64,000 nucleotides of DNA, taken from positions 224,001-288,000 of IMG/VR virus record IMGVR_UViG_3300031088_000008; one strand, 5' to 3'. Below are positions 48,836 to 59,274 of the stretch, one piece after another. Numbering within the stretch: position 1 is the stretch's first letter; the number at the start of each line of letters is the position of its first letter. Below the pieces are notes generated by a model. That model was not told the DNA's origin. It did no database searches and worked only from the letters and a program-made list of their open reading frames with translations. This stretch comes from a virus. Its lineage: Duplodnaviria; Caudoviricetes. The position numbers and the translations under genes were made by a program.

Positions 48836-49204
48836 ATGTCCATCGCAGCAGACGACTACCAGAACACGCAGAACGAAATCGCACGCCGCAATTACGCGCT
48901 GACGACCGAAACGCACGACTGCGAGAACATGCTCCAGATCAAGTGCGGTGGCGAGATTCTCGTTACGGTCTGCCAGCCGGCTGGTCCGACTGTTCCCACG
49001 GAGTTCCTGGTTTTCAACGGTGATGGCCTCGATGCCGAGGACAACGACCTGACGGCCGCCGACGCGGTCAAGGTGTTTCCGGTTCGTCTGGATGTCAATG
49101 ATGCGTGGCGCCAGGCTGCGCGCTTTGGCTATCTTCACGCACTGGCCCGCATGATGACTTCGGATATTCGTCAGGAGACCGAAGAACTGCTGATGATGGC
49201 TTAA
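48836..49204 (+). CDS. Hypothetical protein
   Basis: Cassette promoter and RBS. Confidence 0.7.
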   Translation: MSIAADDYQNTQNEIARRNYALTTETHDCENMLQIKCGGEILVTVCQPAGPTVPTEFLVFNGDGLDAEDNDLTAADAVKVFPVRLDVNDAWRQAARFGYLHALARMMTSDIRQETEELLMMA

Positions 49205-49731
49205 ACGCCCATCAGCTTTAGCGTTAGGTCACGAAGCCGATACAACGCGGCTTCCTGATCTTTTCGCAACCTACGAGGGATACGGTCGGCAACGCAAATG
49301 GTGCCCACACTGTATCCCTCGCTCGTCGTCAGCGACAATCCAGAATAAAATCTCAGATAATCGTAGGTTCCATTGACGAATGGAAGCCCGCAGACCTGTG
49401 AGTCCGCTTGTGCATCATAGATGATCACGGGCTGGTCGGGGCTTCTCGTCAACAGGTTGCAGAACGTTTCCTCGCGACAATAGCGAAGATCGGGGTTGGG
49501 ACTGCCCGTTAGAAGTGCTTTGTAGATGGTACGTTCGTCATCAATCAAGCTGACGGCCGCGACGGGCGTTTCGCAGATCTGTGATGCCAGGGCTGCGATA
49601 TGTAGGAAGTGCTCGTCTGGGAGTTCTCCGATACGGTCCAAGATTTTGGTTACCGCACAGGCGCGGATCGTCTCGGCCAGTTCTTCGCTCAAGCCTGTAA
49701 CGGCCTTTGCGGTGTTCTCGAGATTGTCCAT
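49201..49731 (-). CDS. Stand-alone GAF domain protein
   Basis: A.QIC.TPVA.VSLID..R...REETFC...DAQAD...PFV...LRFYSG..L...G...GTICVAD..PR.L; GAGGAG RBS. Confidence 0.85.
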   Translation of the reverse strand: MDNLENTAKAVTGLSEELAETIRACAVTKILDRIGELPDEHFLHIAALASQICETPVAAVSLIDDERTIYKALLTGSPNPDLRYCREETFCNLLTRSPDQPVIIYDAQADSQVCGLPFVNGTYDYLRFYSGLSLTTSEGYSVGTICVADRIPRRLRKDQEAALYRLRDLTLKLMGV

Positions 49732-49868
49732 CGTTTTCTCCTCTTGCTCTATTTAGTGAACAAAAAATGTCCTGGTGTGAAAAAAGCGGTTGACGTAAAC
49801 CAGGACGGCATTAGGTGTGTTGAGGACAGGGCAGCAGTTGTCCTGGGCATAACGAGGAGATCGAAATC

Positions 49869-50186
49869 GTGTCTTACAAGAATCTGAACATCAATGCAGC
49901 AGCAACCCTGGCACTCGTCGGTTCGGCCACCAAGGCTCGGATTCGGATGCGCGGTGAGACTCTGCAGATTCGCTTCACCGATCGCACCTCGCTGGTGAAT
50001 CTCCCCAAGGACGAGCAGGTCGCCAATCTCTCGGTCAAGGGCAACGGTCGTCGGCTCGGTCTGCGGTCGGCATTCGCTGGTCACCTGGAAGCCGGCAGCA
50101 AGGTCGCACTGGCGAACCCCAAGTATGGCTGGTACGATGTCGTGCCGAGCACCGAGAACATCGCAGCTTCGGTCACCGCAAACTGA
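49869..50186 (+). CDS. Paralog family A protein 3
   Basis: NLNINAAATLALVG...KARIR..G..LQI..T.R.S.VNLPKDE; KYGW. Confidence 0.7.
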   Translation: MSYKNLNINAAATLALVGSATKARIRMRGETLQIRFTDRTSLVNLPKDEQVANLSVKGNGRRLGLRSAFAGHLEAGSKVALANPKYGWYDVVPSTENIAASVTAN

Positions 50187-50406
50187 TCGGCGGGGGAGGG
50201 GATGATCTCCTCTCCCCTCCCCCTGCATAGGAGAAACGTGATGGCAAAGCTGATCATGGTGACCAAAAAGGGTCGTCATCGGAAAGAACATACTTTCCCC
50301 ATCGAGTTCGATGCCACGCAGGATCCCATCGCACGGGCGGCGGCAATCAGCACTGCAACGGCCAGTCTCCTGGACCCCGTTGTCAACTGGCGGATCGAGG
50401 AATAAA

Positions 50407-50841
50407 ATGGTGTGGGCTGTATTCCAAGACCATCGCGGTGTTCTACATTGCGAGCGCGTCAATGAGGGAATCCAGTGCTGGACCAAAGTTATTCCGGTGC
50501 GGCCCGAGATTCGTAGCTTTCTGGGTCGTGTAATTCAAAAGGGCCGCCAGGAAGAGACGCTTCTCCACACGGTGTTCCTGGAAAAGTTCTACGATCGGAA
50601 GGACTACACCGACAACGCTTTTGAACCCGCTGGTGAAGGCTACACGCTGGATCCTATGATGCGCTACATGAAGACCAACAAGTGGGGTCCCGTGAAGATT
50701 ATGGCGTTCATAAAATGTGACACCACAGGCCAGATACTGCATAGTAAGTTCAAAGCCTTTGAGCCGTTCTCTGAAAGCCAGGGACCCCGGCCGGGCAATG
50801 ATCGACTGGTAGCAATGGTGCATCAGTTGTCGGAGATTTGA
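50407..50841 (+). CDS. Hypothetical protein
   Basis: GAGGA RBS. Confidence 0.6.
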   Translation: MVWAVFQDHRGVLHCERVNEGIQCWTKVIPVRPEIRSFLGRVIQKGRQEETLLHTVFLEKFYDRKDYTDNAFEPAGEGYTLDPMMRYMKTNKWGPVKIMAFIKCDTTGQILHSKFKAFEPFSESQGPRPGNDRLVAMVHQLSEI

Positions 50842-51027
50842 TGTGGACGCTTTCGTGGGACTTGCTTTCTTATTCGTCGCAGTTTGCATCGTGTGTACCT
50901 TTGTAGTCGTAGGCCTCGCCCTCCTCATTGGTCTCCTGATGCTCATCGGAAAGCTGATTGTCTGGATGGCCTACCTTGGTGTGGTGTTCATTGCCCTGGC
51001 ATTAGTCAGCTGGATCGCGGTTAGTTC

Positions 51028-51738
51028 ATGGCAAGTATTTCGCGACTACTTTTCATAACCGGCACGTTCCTTGCAAGCCCAGTGGCTGCACAGGAACTCA
51101 AGCCACTTTGTCCCGATCGTGGGGCGTTTCAACCCTGCACCGTTGATCCCGGACACATTCAAGTTGAGATTGGTCTCCTTGACTGGTTCCAGGATGCCGA
51201 TGATACCCGTATGATCGCCGATGCGGTTGTCCGGCTGGGACTGGATGACACATCGGAAGTTCAGCTGGCCATGAGCCCCATGGTGCGTAAGAGCTTTGCT
51301 CAGGGTCGTGGTGATCTCCGCCTAAGCTACCGGAAGCGTCTTGTAGAAGGCGACTTCAGCCTAGCAGTCCAGCCCAGTCTCCAGTTGCCAACGGGTTCTC
51401 AGGGGCTCTCTGGTGATCGGTTGATCCCCGGAATTGCCATTGGGAGCACCTACGATCTAACTCCCAGCACTCAATTCTATCTCACGCCCTATGCGGTCAA
51501 GGGTCAGAATCTGCTCGGAGGCACATTTCTAGGTGTCAATCAGATCGTCCATGGTCCACTGGGTGCTTCGGCCGAGGTGATGTTTCAGCATCAAAAGGGC
51601 GAAACGCAGAGCAGTGCGGACTTCACTCTCACTTATACAGTAGGTAGTAGGATGGAGTTCGACACTTCAGCGAACTTCGGTCTAACTAGGCAAACTCCCG
51701 CTGTTGAACTTGTAGTTGGAGTAACGCGTCGCTTCTAG
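51028..51738 (+). CDS. Outer-membrane beta-barrel 'transporter' (MetA-pathway-like)
   Basis: Signal peptide; LCPDR...PCTVDPGH.QVE; amphipathic strands; C-terminal Phe. Confidence 0.7.
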   Translation: MASISRLLFITGTFLASPVAAQELKPLCPDRGAFQPCTVDPGHIQVEIGLLDWFQDADDTRMIADAVVRLGLDDTSEVQLAMSPMVRKSFAQGRGDLRLSYRKRLVEGDFSLAVQPSLQLPTGSQGLSGDRLIPGIAIGSTYDLTPSTQFYLTPYAVKGQNLLGGTFLGVNQIVHGPLGASAEVMFQHQKGETQSSADFTLTYTVGSRMEFDTSANFGLTRQTPAVELVVGVTRRF

Positions 51739-51784
51739 TGTGAAGTGTGGGGAATCGCAGAATTCTGCGGCTCTGAGGAGTAGA

Positions 51785-51909
51785 CACTTACAAGGGCACT
51801 TACAAGGGCACTTACAAGGGCACTTACAAGGGCACTTACAAGGGCACTTACAAGGGCACTTACAAGGGCACTTACAAGGGCACTTACAAGGGCACTTACA
51901 AGGGCACTT
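51785..51909. repeat. Perfect 12-bp tandem repeat (CACTTACAAGGG)x10 + CACTT
   Basis: Directly visible; intergenic. Confidence 0.97.
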
Positions 51910-51954
51910 CAACATAGTTGTTGACAAGTTGCTAATTTCAGTTAGTTGATGTGC

Positions 51955-52025
51955 AGTTGATGTTGACCTTGGTTGGCCACTGACATCAGTATTCAAAGGC
52001 GGTTGCTTCGGCGGCCGCCTTTTTT
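51955..52025 (+). ncRNA. Candidate about 70-nt antisense sRNA
   Basis: Promoter TTGACA 51921 / GTTA 51941; hairpin 51957-51989; terminator 51998-52025; loop complementary to 52091-52102. Confidence 0.55.
51998..52025 (+). terminator. Intrinsic terminator
   Basis: ggcggttgc-ttcg-gcggccgcc-tttttt. Confidence 0.85.
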
Positions 52026-52158
52026 CTTGCCTGAGCACTCTTTTTCTGCTTGACGCGAGTAGAACACGGTTACATTAAGGACAGCGCAAGGTGGCCAACC
52101 AAAACACTTTGTAAAAAGTAAAGCAAGCAACGTGCTTGCTACAGAAAAGGTTAACGTT

Positions 52159-52761
52159 ATGAAGAACACTCGCTTTGAAACCGGCTGCAATCTCCCGGGT
52201 CTGGAATCGCTCGTCATTGGGCAGTATGGCGCCTCGCTGTCGAAGAACAACAACCAGACGCCGGCCATGATGGTGCTGCTCTTCACGTTCGATACTGCGG
52301 AGGAGCGCAACAAATATCGGTATGTTCGCATCGAACAGGCCGGTGAGGGATATCTGGCCCGCCTGATGCAGAATCGTGCTCCAGGCTATCTGAGCAAGGG
52401 AGAAACTGCCGCAGTAAAACTCGGCGACTACAATAACTCCACTCGCCAGGCGTCTGCAGGTCGCGCGCAGAGCTGGCTGGGCCTCGATGATGTGATGTCC
52501 GAAATGGGCAAGAACACTGCGGTCATCAGCTGCATCAGCGAAGCGTATGATGACTACCAGGGCAACGGTCCGGAGATGCACGTCTACTTTACCGTTGAAG
52601 CAGTTCGCAACGTTTCGGAAACCACGACCACTGAGCCGCTTCTGGATTCGCTCCCGGCTGCTGAAAAGTTCATCATTGACATGAGCCTCCCAGCCGACGT
52701 GATCGCAAAGCTTCTGGATGTTGCCAAGATCAAGGGACAGGTTCCCGAATACCAGTTCTAA
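52159..52761 (+). CDS. Hypothetical protein with a structured 5' leader
   Basis: Promoter TTGACG 52050; leader hairpin 52122-52140; AAAGG RBS. Confidence 0.75.
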   Translation: MKNTRFETGCNLPGLESLVIGQYGASLSKNNNQTPAMMVLLFTFDTAEERNKYRYVRIEQAGEGYLARLMQNRAPGYLSKGETAAVKLGDYNNSTRQASAGRAQSWLGLDDVMSEMGKNTAVISCISEAYDDYQGNGPEMHVYFTVEAVRNVSETTTTEPLLDSLPAAEKFIIDMSLPADVIAKLLDVAKIKGQVPEYQF

Positions 52762-52827
52762 AATCCTGGTTGACACCGGCCACCAGTCTGCTAGGACTGG
52801 TGGCGTAGGTGCAACAGGAGATCGAAA

Positions 52828-53076
52828 ATGGCAGCGCGTCTTATTAGCATGGAAGAGATGAAGTCGATGGTGGATCGCATGTGCGACCCCACGCTCGATG
52901 GTGAGGGTCTCATCCGCGTAATGAACGAAGCTGCCCGCGCAGTTGGTGTCGACAATCGCCGCCGAGTTTCCATCAAGGAAAACTCCCACCGGGTTGCGGT
53001 ACGCAACGCATCCGCAACCGGCGATCTCGCGGAACTCCGCCGACTGGCAAACAAAAATCTCACGGGCCGCCGCTAA
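52828..53076 (+). CDS. Hypothetical protein
   Basis: Cassette promoter and RBS. Confidence 0.65.
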   Translation: MAARLISMEEMKSMVDRMCDPTLDGEGLIRVMNEAARAVGVDNRRRVSIKENSHRVAVRNASATGDLAELRRLANKNLTGRR

Positions 53077-53449
53077 TGGAGGAGCAGATCAAAGCTCTGA
53101 TCACCAAGTGGCGTGAGCAGTCCGATTATAGCTGGAGCATTGGTGACGATGGTGCAGGTCGTGCATGGTCTGAAGCCGCTGACCAGTTGGAAGAGGAGTT
53201 GAACGCATGAAGGTGTTCGTACTCATGCGCCACTATCTGGAAGACTACAGTCATCCATTCAATGAACCCGAGCGCATCACGGAGTTCAAGGGCGTCTATG
53301 CAAGCCGCAAGGATGCCGACACGGCCAAGGATCGTGCCGATGAACGTGCCAAGCTGCCCAAGTATGCAAGGCTGCAAGAGCGCTACGTGGTTATCGAGAC
53401 GGACGTCCTCGGGCTGTTTCCCGAGGACACCGTGATCATGAGGCGTATG

Positions 53450-54079
53450 TCAGGCCTCTGAAACCTTCGCTGCTTCAAGTTCCGCAACAGTGATAACTCG
53501 TTCGGTCTTGACATCCTGCCCACCCCAAGTCAGCTTGAACAATAGGGCGTCCTTGGGGTCCTTGAAGTAAAAGTTACCGCGCGACCAGCCGCTCATCATG
53601 CAGCGTTCCTGGTCGTCGCCAAACTGTTCCTTGCACCAAGCCTGCATCTCACGAACGTTCTCGCTGCTGGTCTGCCAGTAGCTTAGTCGAGTGTGACTTA
53701 CCCGTAGGCACATCCTATACTTGCTGTAGAACAGTTGCTTTCGAGTGATCAGCTTGTCGTTGCTTTCCAGCATCTGAGTGTGCTCTTCACTCAGTGGCTT
53801 TTCCAGCACACTGATAAAGTCCTCACCAACTTGTTCCTTCAAGTATTCAAAGACCACTGGATCCTTGAAGAACACTGAGCATTGCTGGCTTTTGTGAACA
53901 TAGCTGTAGGTGCTTACCGTGCGCCAACCGCCGTCAGGAAAACGCTTGTTCAGCAGCCACTCCACTGTTTCAGCGGTTGGCTTGATTACTGGTTCCCGGT
54001 AGCCACTAGTCCTTGCATTGATGACCAGGCGGTGGTCATACTTCTTGTAATAGATCTTCTTTGTAAACTGAGTTTCCAT
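53450..54079 (-). CDS. Paralog family B protein (two-unit version)
   Basis: VFFKDP and WC...FYFKDPKDALLFKLTW. Confidence 0.75.
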   Translation of the reverse strand: METQFTKKIYYKKYDHRLVINARTSGYREPVIKPTAETVEWLLNKRFPDGGWRTVSTYSYVHKSQQCSVFFKDPVVFEYLKEQVGEDFISVLEKPLSEEHTQMLESNDKLITRKQLFYSKYRMCLRVSHTRLSYWQTSSENVREMQAWCKEQFGDDQERCMMSGWSRGNFYFKDPKDALLFKLTWGGQDVKTERVITVAELEAAKVSEA

Positions 54080-56860: not shown

Positions 56861-57454
56861 TTATGCTTCCTTCGTAAGTGGGGCCAACGTGTCGCGCATC
56901 AGAGCTGAAAGGGTATCCAGTTCCAAGACCGTTTGTATTGCGGACATGAGTTGACTCTTCAGGTCAACTATCTCCTGTGCCTTAAGCTGGGAGTTGGTTT
57001 TTTCCTCCTCCCACCATTTTTTATATCGCGCGACCAGAGCTGTCTGCTCATTTGTGTCAGCCTTATGAAGGGCTCGAAGTTCCTCGAGTGTGTGGGGAAC
57101 TTCTACATCGAGGCCTCCGATGCGAACCTGAGGAATGCCATCTTTATTCCTACCATTTTCGATAATATGATAGGCATCGAAAACGTAATGATCTAGCTTC
57201 TGGTTGGCCATATCAACGATTTTCCATTCGTTGATACACCATCTGCGATTTACTTCTCGGACGTAGACATTGCTACTGTACTGACCTGGCCACCTAATAC
57301 CCAGACCTGGCCGACCTGGCCAACCACCAACCTTCCGAATAAATCCGGCAAAGTGAAATTCATCTAAGGCAGCTTCTGGAGTAATCGCAAAATATAATCT
57401 GCGATCTCCCTTGGTGTTGGTGCACTCATATAGCTTGAACTCTTTGTCAGCCAT
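56861..57454 (-). CDS. Hypothetical protein
   Basis: Coupled ORF; lower GC than neighbours. Confidence 0.65.
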   Translation of the reverse strand: MADKEFKLYECTNTKGDRRLYFAITPEAALDEFHFAGFIRKVGGWPGRPGLGIRWPGQYSSNVYVREVNRRWCINEWKIVDMANQKLDHYVFDAYHIIENGRNKDGIPQVRIGGLDVEVPHTLEELRALHKADTNEQTALVARYKKWWEEEKTNSQLKAQEIVDLKSQLMSAIQTVLELDTLSALMRDTLAPLTKEA

Positions 57455-59274
57455 TATGCTTCCTTCCAACCCTCACCATCGAGGTAAGCCTTGACCTCGT
57501 CGAACAAGCCCTCGCTGCTGTAGCTGAAGCCCGTCTCGGGGTTCTCACCCTTCCGCTTGTGGATCATCTGCGTGATGTCGTCGATGTTCCAGTCGCCGCC
57601 CCACTCCTTGAGCACCTCGCTCAAGACATCACCGGGGAGGTCGATGGTCTCCAGCAAGTTGCCTTCACGATCCAGATAGCCCATCTGCATCACGATGCCC
57701 GTGAACTCCCGGCGGACGAACTTGTAGCCCAGTCCGGTGATCTGTGCATCGCGGGGACGATAGCGATCCGACCACGTGAGATCGAGGGGAAGGTTGGCCT
57801 TGTTGGCACTGAAGGTGTTCCAGACCTCGCCGCAGAACTCCGCCCACTTGTCGCCACTGTCGCTGTTGATGTAGGCACTGGCTGCACCCACCGGAGGAGC
57901 CGGTGGAACAACGGCCGGCGGTGCTGCTGGGAGTGGAGCAAAGCTGCCCGCCCTTGCATTCATGGACGCTGGGCCGACCATTGGACCGGGCGAGCCACCG
58001 CCCATGTGACCGCCACCAAAGCCCGGCGACATCGGAGGAGCAACGTAGGGCGGCGGTGCAGGAGCCACGATATCGTAGGGCGCGGGATATGCCTGATCAT
58101 CATCACGGATGCTGACGTACTGGTCATCCTCGTCCATGTCCAGCACCGCTGCCAGATAATCGCTGAGATCCTCGTCCTGTGCGGCGAAGAAGTCGATCAG
58201 GGGATTGCTCGATCCATCGTCGTAGATCTCATAGAGCAGCCAGATTGCGTGACTGCGCTCGATTTCGATTTCGTCGACGCCGGACTGGAACTGCCTGTTG
58301 ATCGCCGCGTCATCGTCCCACGTGGAGTTGGCCTGATCCAAGCCCTGAAGGCCCATGATCCGCTGACTGATGAACGCTGCCTGTGCTGCCGGCTGAAGAT
58401 TGACCAGTTCTGGATAGCCACCGCTCATGATGGGCATCGCGGCCTGCATTCCAGGGCTGTTGAAGAGACCAGAGGGCGGAAGCGGAGGGACACCGCCCAG
58501 CGGCTGCATGGCCGGAATATGGGTGCTGCCGATAGTCACGCCACCGGTTGCACCCAGGGAACCAGCCATCTGACCGATAGCCGCCATCATCGCGGCCTGC
58601 TGTGCCTGATGCGTCGCGGCCTGCGCGGCTGCAACCTGTCCGGGATTCTTGTTGGCAAACCGGGTGATCGTGCTCGCCGGAGTGCTGCTCGAAGCCGGCT
58701 GAAGCGGTGCGCTGTAGTTGGGGTCGAGGACCGCAGGAACGATCGAGAGATCAGGACCGGGAGCCGGCGTGGTTGGCGCCTTGTGTGCCATCAGCCAGTC
58801 GGTCAGCTCACGCGAGAACTTGAAGCCGGCCTTCTTCAGCGTCATGTGGATCGTGAGTTCATTGTAGTCGTTCTTGCTGGCGATGAACTGATTCTCGCAT
58901 ACCTCATCGAGGTTCGCTGGAAGCCCCATCAGGGCGACCAGACCATCCTGCTGATGCTGGTCATACAGTTGAGCCGTCCGGAGAAAGCGATCGAGTGGTT
59001 CGAACGAAAGCACGAAGCTGCCGTCTTCGCCCAGATCTGCTGCGTCGCTGAACCCATAGATCCACTGATCCTTTTCCAGGATCTGGCAGTCTTCGTCGTC
59101 GCCCAGCGTATATACGGTGCGATTCAGCTTGGAGTTGTGGAACTCCCGGAAGTCATGCCCGCTTGCGAGAGTCCGCTTGTCGCGGCGCTTCCAGTCGGCG
59201 GCCTTGCTTCCCTTGACGTCCGTGCAATCGAAATAGTTGACGATTGCATCCTTGATATCGTCGCTTGCACTCAT
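57454..59274 (-). CDS. Multidomain hypothetical protein with Pro/Ala/Gly-rich linkers
   Basis: Cassette promoter + AGGAGATCG put the start at 59274 (MSASDD). Confidence 0.8.
   Translation of the reverse strand: MSASDDIKDAIVNYFDCTDVKGSKAADWKRRDKRTLASGHDFREFHNSKLNRTVYTLGDDEDCQILEKDQWIYGFSDAADLGEDGSFVLSFEPLDRFLRTAQLYDQHQQDGLVALMGLPANLDEVCENQFIASKNDYNELTIHMTLKKAGFKFSRELTDWLMAHKAPTTPAPGPDLSIVPAVLDPNYSAPLQPASSSTPASTITRFANKNPGQVAAAQAATHQAQQAAMMAAIGQMAGSLGATGGVTIGSTHIPAMQPLGGVPPLPPSGLFNSPGMQAAMPIMSGGYPELVNLQPAAQAAFISQRIMGLQGLDQANSTWDDDAAINRQFQSGVDEIEIERSHAIWLLYEIYDDGSSNPLIDFFAAQDEDLSDYLAAVLDMDEDDQYVSIRDDDQAYPAPYDIVAPAPPPYVAPPMSPGFGGGHMGGGSPGPMVGPASMNARAGSFAPLPAAPPAVVPPAPPVGAASAYINSDSGDKWAEFCGEVWNTFSANKANLPLDLTWSDRYRPRDAQITGLGYKFVRREFTGIVMQMGYLDREGNLLETIDLPGDVLSEVLKEWGGDWNIDDITQMIHKRKGENPETGFSYSSEGLFDEVKAYLDGEGWKEA

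Follow-up and report, generated by a model that had tools for sequence, protein, structure and literature searches.

Among the described systems, those closest to the element examined here are antisense RNAs of phages and plasmids. The C4 RNA of phage P1 is released from an operon transcript by RNase P processing, and Citron and Schuster are said to have described in 1990 how two C4 loop segments pair with two targets, one of which covers the ribosome-binding site of icd. The CI RNA of satellite phage P4 acts by premature transcription termination within one transcript. CopA/CopT and RNA I/RNA II are transcribed from the strand opposite their target, which makes their complementarity automatic. 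To our knowledge, the regulatory RNAs of giant phages are almost unknown. In this study, we analyzed a locus in a 64,000-nt stretch of DNA (the window, that is, the whole stretch analyzed), which comprises bases 224001-288000 of a 416,714-bp giant-phage record of IMG/VR (IMGVR_UViG_3300031088_000008) estimated to be 90% complete. In this locus, a putative promoter (P1), a predicted small RNA (sRNA), an intrinsic terminator, and a second putative promoter (P2) precede a gene for a 200-aa protein, and the hairpin loop of the sRNA is complementary to the leader of that gene. We regard the locus as a well-supported candidate antisense RNA module, judged by its sequence and that of its variants. 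It probably encodes a C4-like but non-homologous antisense RNA that would repress translation of the neighbouring gene.

As stated in excerpts of the respective sources, full repression of ant in P1 requires C4 (PMC8198154), and P1 and P7 are heteroimmune owing to minor nucleotide differences in ImmI (PMC6906374). The literature matches listed, as far as their excerpts go, concern transcriptome maps and synthetic antisense tools and include no natural antisense RNA of the layout described here.

Arm complementarity is conserved through compensatory changes

The two arms of the locus are the hairpin loop of the predicted sRNA (segment B) and a segment in the leader of the target gene (target B'). 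Segment B forms 12 Watson-Crick pairs and one G-U pair with 52090-52102, a match reached by 5 of 5000 shuffles, and each 12-mer arm is single-copy in the 416,714-bp genome. By itself, a 12-nt inverted repeat is unremarkable, because simulated genomes yield 3-13 of them. With a spacer of at most 200 nt, perfect inverted repeats of at least 12 nt number 27 in the phage genome and 8, 13, 4, 5, and 3 in five Markov-2 simulations. These frequencies would fit chance complementarity in a repeat-rich spacer, with the hairpin and terminator merely ending the upstream operon, and so would the nine inverted repeats of at least 9 nt in the spacer of a distant syntenic locus (L003). However, the pair rises above chance because its complementarity survives compensatory changes in L003 and in a strain variant (X2). 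In X2, the compensation affects two adjacent positions, which would occur in about 1 of 594 cases if two random substitutions hit the second arm. In L003, the homologous place carries a longer match, whose 13-pair run is reached by 13 of 5000 shuffles. A chance origin is, in our judgment, very improbable. The genome's other long-spacer non-coding inverted repeats were also inspected, and none has a promoter-terminator-promoter layout; two of them were recognised by eye among tRNA-like sequences. A minus-strand tRNA-like cluster, likewise recognised by eye, lies at genome positions 352,400-358,300, outside the window.

The strain comparison is based on contigs of four DNA runs, among which the X4 and X9 contigs leave parts of the stretch uncovered. 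The X2 contig (1,625 nt, depth 16) spans 51000-51782 and 51867-52420, and its second piece is fully reconstructable, with all 25 substitutions and all 7 indel letters known. In this contig, 51973 T>A is accompanied by 52098 A>T, and 51974 T>C by 52097 A>G, and all 12 arm pairs stay intact. Additionally, 52090 G>A turns a G-U pair into an A-U pair both with 51981 (intermolecular) and with 52108, its partner in leader hairpin 1; in that hairpin, two G-U pairs become A-U, at 52086/52112 and 52090/52108. Within 51954-52156 (203 nt) lie 22 of the 25 substitutions and all indels. Elsewhere, X2 has 13 substitutions in the 783 nt upstream and 2 in the 262 covered coding nucleotides. The divergence of X2 is uneven, because 49 of 770 positions differ in a separate X2 contig downstream (52728-53497).

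Another contig, X6 (14.6 kb), differs in a larger block. Here, 52032-52759, which holds the leader and the whole gene, is replaced by 713 letters that are less than 80% alike, with flanks that are about 97% identical. This difference looks like a cassette-like allele swap. The upstream arm of X6 carries 51974 T>C (three of the seven differences in 51956-52032 are listed).

The most distant comparison is provided by L003, a 3,122-bp metagenome contig whose first 1,600 bases are homologous to window positions 48857-50410 and whose protein is about 35-36% identical to the 200-aa protein. Its elements follow the order of a 12-nt-period array, promoter, arm, terminator, P2 block, second arm in a leader hairpin, CAAGCAACG, and gene. 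The arms of L003, TGTCTTTGGTCGGACATACACT (2224-2245) and AGGGCATGACCGACCAAAGACA (2347-2368), pair at 19 of 22 positions, 13 of them contiguous. Three of the 12 arm positions shared with the window differ; two of these differences are matched by changes in both arms, and the third leaves an A-A mismatch. The centre-to-centre distance of the arms is 122 nt in the window versus 123 nt in L003. The L003 promoter (TTGACA, 17 nt, TAGTAA) lies 51 nt before the arm, versus 48 nt in the window, and the P2 equivalent reads TTGACG, 17 nt, TATTTA. At the place of the terminator, L003 has a hairpin of unrelated sequence followed by a T-run (-17.9 kcal/mol, z -2.99), and its leader hairpin stands at the same place with a different stem sequence (z -3.11). 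The CAAGCAACG block is common to both loci. Collectively, the complementarity of the arms, its conservation through compensatory changes, and the conserved layout are direct observations on these sequences.

The first-pass annotation had joined the repeat array, the sRNA, and the target gene into one regulatory module and had named covariation in related phages as a check. The arm complementarity is indeed conserved and covaries in X2 and L003, the element order is kept in L003, and P1 fits the phage consensus; these results speak for the sRNA and its target as parts of such a module. Patterns derived from the conserved blocks of the window and L003 returned at least 115 and 38 viral-contig stretches, which were dismissed as chance. 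Of 156 loci compared, L003 alone encodes the protein, and the spacer was recovered in none by tblastn or blastn.

A second block of complementarity, overlooked by the first-pass annotation, connects 51958-51970 (segment A) with 52147-52159 at the ribosome-binding site through 13 consecutive pairs, three of which are G-U; 3 of 5000 shuffles reached this pairing. When the predicted sRNA and the leader were cofolded, 51958-51981 was paired without interruption. All four X2 changes in target A' keep the pairing. In particular, the transversion 52151 T>A is compensated by 51966 A>T, and at 52147, 52153, and 52156, A/G changes opposite U interchange G-U and A-U pairs. Such interchange is a signature of RNA pairing, which argues against a pure DNA-site model. 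Moreover, the cofold energy gain over the monomers is -20.6 (window), -23.5 (X2), and -11.6 (L003) kcal/mol for the cognate pairs and -2.0 to -11.2 kcal/mol for the six non-cognate pairs, the two combinations of window and X2 partners giving -9.4 and -11.2 kcal/mol. In these models, the predicted binding is specific to the cognate partner.

Promoters, proposed mechanism and alternative explanations

P1 was compared with the phage's own promoter consensus, in which aaaCTGGTTGAC and a 16-nt spacer lead to a TA that has tGGTGC before it; in many cases, ATAGGCAAAC or ATCGGAAAC and then AGGAGATCGAA-ATG come next. A matrix from 50 consensus sites with a 16-nt spacer gave training scores with a minimum of 9.4 and a median of 27.1 bits. 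In this matrix, P1 scores 12.6 bits, which is within the training range and ranks 88 among 833,330 positions; 103 genome positions score at least 10 bits. P1 is identical in X2. Of the whole spacer, the P2 block, TTTTCTG(C/T)TTGACGCG, is the part that the window and L003 conserve best. In the genome, only two intergenic promoter-to-terminator units of 60-170 nt were found, the sRNA unit being one of them. The other unit, at genome positions 164,639-164,800 (outside the window), has a consensus promoter and a terminator within 170 nt and may hold a very small open reading frame (ORF).

The phage-wide consensus is often accompanied by an inverted repeat around the -10, an example in the window being 52768-52826, upstream of the next gene. 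The consensus resembles the Caulobacter housekeeping consensus, which we take to be TTGACGS-N10-14-GCTANAWC, and this likeness hints at an alphaproteobacterial host. A further motif, TAAATA, occurs 48 times in 284 upstream regions genome-wide, versus 3.3 expected, often as GGTAAATA or TAAATAGG. It may represent a second promoter class, and none was found in 51739-52158.

The mechanism that we favour would run as follows. P1 would drive an RNA of about 74 nt (~51955-52028), ending at a strong intrinsic terminator; its start was placed at the A located 12 nt after the TA of the -10, following the phage consensus. P2 would start the mRNA of the 200-aa gene near 52084. The hairpin loop of the RNA (51969-51981) would contact the loop of leader hairpin 1 (52090-52102). 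In this phage lineage, 51958-51970 would then zip onto the Shine-Dalgarno/AUG segment 52147-52159, and the 44 nucleotides that separate targets B' and A' and contain hairpin 2 would loop out, with this hairpin at the junction. Ribosome binding would be blocked and the gene repressed. From the elements and their conservation, we infer the firing of P1 and P2, the transcript starts, the action in trans, and the repression. L003 has only the longer pairing at the 5' end of the leader, so that contact of the RNA with the 5' leader stands out as the conserved core. Moreover, the partners occupy separate places on one strand, so that their complementarity must be kept by selection.

The same segments could also pair within a single molecule. 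In this alternative, one long read-through transcript, from the upstream gene or from P1, would carry both arms and pair in cis, hiding the ribosome-binding site or creating a processing site. When 51739-52175 is folded as one strand (-142.2 kcal/mol, z -3.45), both leader segments are paired with 51958-51981, and no T-run terminator of the upstream gene is present between its stop at 51738 and 51995. In phage P1, according to an excerpt of PMC8198154, a single operon comprises c4, icd, and ant, C4 being the antisense RNA. However, a strong terminator lies between the arms in both loci and is followed by the conserved promoter block TTGACGCG with a -10. With this terminator and P2, read-through transcripts would be a minority, and transcripts from P2 would lack the upstream arm. 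We consider pairing in cis as the function of the arms unlikely.

Alternatively, the arms could be DNA sites, either operators of a looping repressor that bracket P2 or repeats of an invertible promoter segment (51981-52090, which holds the terminator and P2). The inverted repeats do flank P2, with the downstream arm at about +6 to +17 of P2, the spacing of the arms is conserved, and two copies of one site would also covary. In contrast, recombinases of the serine (PF00239) and tyrosine (PF00589, recombinase/integrase) families gave 0 matches each in the 416,714-bp phage record; a host enzyme is conceivable. All three assemblies that span both arms (window, X2, and L003, each a contig) have the same orientation, and the joints listed for contigs of the four runs are skips only, none of them strand-changing. 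Additionally, the sites differ between strains whose upstream genes are about 98% identical, so that a binding protein would have to change too, and the G-U-containing complementarity to the Shine-Dalgarno/AUG region and the covarying leader hairpin would play no role. A function of the arms as DNA sites is distinctly unlikely in our estimate.

Besides the covariation that two DNA sites would share, several further observations weigh against an antisense RNA. Only three sequences carry both arms (window, X2, and L003). In X2, 51966 covaries also with 51973 inside the sRNA, and its change thus has several readings. When 570 upstream regions were ranked by unconstrained duplex energy with the sRNA, the cognate leader (-32.2) did not come first (best -45.1, mean -28.3, standard deviation 4.5); this ranking is itself non-discriminating. 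The stability of the sRNA 5' hairpin is unremarkable (z -0.30 in the window and +0.50 in L003). The second pairing is absent from L003, whose longest pairing run with the ribosome-binding site is 7 pairs. Two-sequence RNAalifold alignments give almost no consensus structure, a result that is uninformative because the hairpins fall in different alignment columns. P2 fits the 16-nt-spacer phage matrix poorly (-7.3 bits), and a generic sigma-70 scan of 51000-53500 called 0 promoters versus 1.6 expected, leaving both P1 and P2 uncalled. Finally, none of the runs listed as containing the stretch is an RNA run.

Elements of the locus, target gene and genome setting

The elements described by the first-pass annotation are all present at its coordinates, as read directly from the sequence, and are collected in Table 1 with those added here. 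The terminator, which it had called strong, was also recovered by a + strand terminator call at 51995-52022. Leader hairpin 1 has a predicted energy of -8.7 kcal/mol and accounts for 0.92 of the ensemble. The locus lies near the end of a + strand gene block (rough gene call), and its spacer, 51739-52158 (393-420 nt), is among the longer ones of the genome.

Table 1. Positions of the predicted elements of the locus, in window coordinates.
Feature	Position	Strand	Remarks
Tandem array	51785-51909		10.4 perfect copies of the 12-bp unit CACTTACAAGGG (Tandem Repeats Finder, TRF)
Putative promoter P1	51921-51948	+	TTGACA 51921-51926, 16-nt spacer, TAGTTG 51943-51948
Predicted sRNA, ~74 nt	51955-52028	+	Start inferred from promoter consensus; end = terminator T-run
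sRNA 5' stem	51957-51965/51981-51989	+	9 pairs including 3 G-U; present in minimum-energy fold
sRNA segment A	51958-51970	+	Complementary to Shine-Dalgarno/AUG region 52147-52159
sRNA segment B, hairpin loop	51969-51981	+	Complementary to leader hairpin 1 loop, 52090-52102
Upstream arm, TTGGTTGGCCAC	51969-51980	+	Exact 12-mer
Intrinsic terminator	51995-52028	+	Stem-loop 51995-52022 with 12 pairs (7 G-C) and TTCG loop; then T-run
Putative promoter P2	52050-52078	+	TTGACG 52050-52055; then TACATT after 15 nt or CATTAA after 17 nt
Leader hairpin 1	52086-52112	+	11-nt loop and upper stem bear target B' (52090-52102)
Downstream arm, GTGGCCAACCAA	52091-52102	+	Exact reverse complement of TTGGTTGGCCAC
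Leader hairpin 2	52122-52129/52133-52140	+	8 bp; z -2.89; contains CAAGCAACG; sits between both target segments
Target A'	52147-52159	+	AAGG Shine-Dalgarno-like element through A of start codon
Target gene, 200 aa	52159-52761	+	ATG at 52159; coding score

The copy number of the tandem array varies between strains. X2 skips 84 nt, which is exactly 7 units and gives 3.4 versus 10.4 copies, and in X6, 99 other letters replace 51797-51955. The array of L003 (1958-2038) is degenerate and keeps a 12-nt period, with 4 copies of the shared core CAAG-N1-2-GCACT. A role of the array as a sponge or partner of the sRNA was rejected, since its longest run is 8 pairs with the leader and no run of at least 6 pairs with the sRNA exists. 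For an iteron or partition function, the seven neighbouring proteins tested gave no match to Rep, ParB, ParR, or any other family. A GTG-started 69-aa ORF (51740-51949), in which the array would be translated as (HLQG)n, is unlikely to be a gene because L003 has no counterpart ORF. A second inverted pair in the window, formed by TGGTTGGCCA at 57201-57210/57317-57326 (116 nt apart), was also set aside: it is taken as chance or codon-driven because it lies inside a coding region, the minus-strand ORF 56861-57469. This 10-mer has 8 occurrences in the genome.

In the AlphaFold2 (AF2) model of the 200-aa protein (predicted local distance difference test, pLDDT, 76.3), a disordered linker joins a beta-rich domain at the N-terminus to a small strand-helix-strand unit at the C-terminus. 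Searches of Pfam, PHROGs, PADLOC, and NCBIfam gave 0 families for this protein. Foldseek, which the first-pass annotation had put forward as a route to its function, returned nothing in PDB at E <=0.001; a wide VIA-align search with the model reached a best Z of 4.2, with generic beta-sandwiches, and the ESM Atlas gave no usable match. In an exhaustive search, three distant relatives were found, at 50, 50, and 36% identity, two on Logan contigs only and the third on L003; an indexed search returned only the protein itself. The start codon is backed by the N-terminus of the relative P0003. No paralogues of the target gene occur in the phage, and no relatives of the protein were found in genome contigs. 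Likewise, tblastn of the relative P0002 against phages and queries with the neighbouring genes against viral contigs found none. In viral contigs, the only supposed relative of the protein, L002, is a 29-residue match and was judged spurious from its sequence.

The product of the upstream gene (51028-51738) has 236 aa and matches no family; its N-terminus resembles a signal peptide, and its last residue is Phe, as is seen in outer-membrane beta-barrels. The syntenic L003 lacks both this gene and about 600 nt preceding it. The metagenomes that contain DNA of the stretch come from phyllosphere, plant, and straw samples, and no similar DNA was found in GenBank phages or PLSDB plasmids.

Comparison with known systems

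Three kinds of analogue had been suggested by the first-pass annotation. The P1 C4 RNA holds in layout, as an RNA of the same strand encoded just upstream of its target, and the analogies to type I toxin-antitoxin systems and plasmid rep genes fall away. Type I toxins are small, usually <60 aa, hydrophobic, and membrane-active, whereas the target here encodes a 200-aa protein that is soluble and beta-rich in the AF2 model, not a small hydrophobic peptide, and has no PADLOC or Pfam match. With respect to plasmid rep genes, no replication-protein family matches.

The plasmid copy-control RNAs resemble the proposed module in another respect. In CopA/CopT and RNA I/RNA II, a first loop-loop contact is followed by extended pairing, and few loop bases set the specificity. 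In contrast, both arms are on the + strand here, 110 nt apart. The predicted RNA resembles the P4 CI RNA as a short RNA that arises from a phage leader region and finds its pairing sites farther downstream on that strand. However, the RNA and its target are set apart by a terminator and a promoter at this locus, and Rfam detected no homology. In fimS-type switches, short inverted repeats likewise flank a promoter-bearing segment of about 110 bp; here, no recombinase or inverted form was found, and such a switch would leave the RNA-type complementarity unexplained.

If the antisense reading is true, the locus of this uncultivated phage would supply a repressor module that is compact, portable, and re-programmable. 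It would also point to rapid co-evolution of RNA and target among close strains and would open a way to study an orphan gene that evolves fast and that the phage evidently must restrain. The natural variants already provide the compensatory mutations that a bench test would need. Lysogenic immunity is not an obvious role, because no integrase was found in the phage record. A more speculative idea, which we hold to be fairly unlikely, is that the RNA and the leader form a strain-specific lock that evolves fast by paired changes, with the hypervariable gene swapped as a cassette between near-identical phages. The lock would act as a heteroimmunity- or incompatibility-like determinant between co-infecting relatives, each RNA silencing only its own allele type, and the 12-bp array would tune the output of the RNA promoter.

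Among these systems, C4 of P1 and P7 is the nearest in layout: the antisense RNA immediately precedes the block of genes that it represses and is encoded on their strand. The likeness is one of layout and not of homology, and the predicted RNA is outside the C4 family. Rfam found 0 families at the gathering score in the whole window, and in 51700-52200 its nine rows at E <=10 were far below the gathering scores, none of them C4. The two systems also differ in design. The RNA here has its own terminator and the target its own promoter, whereas C4 of P1 is cut from the same operon transcript, and the target protein is unrelated to Icd or Ant, as it has no family match. Finally, the heteroimmunity of P1 and P7 parallels the strain-specific compensated changes at this locus.

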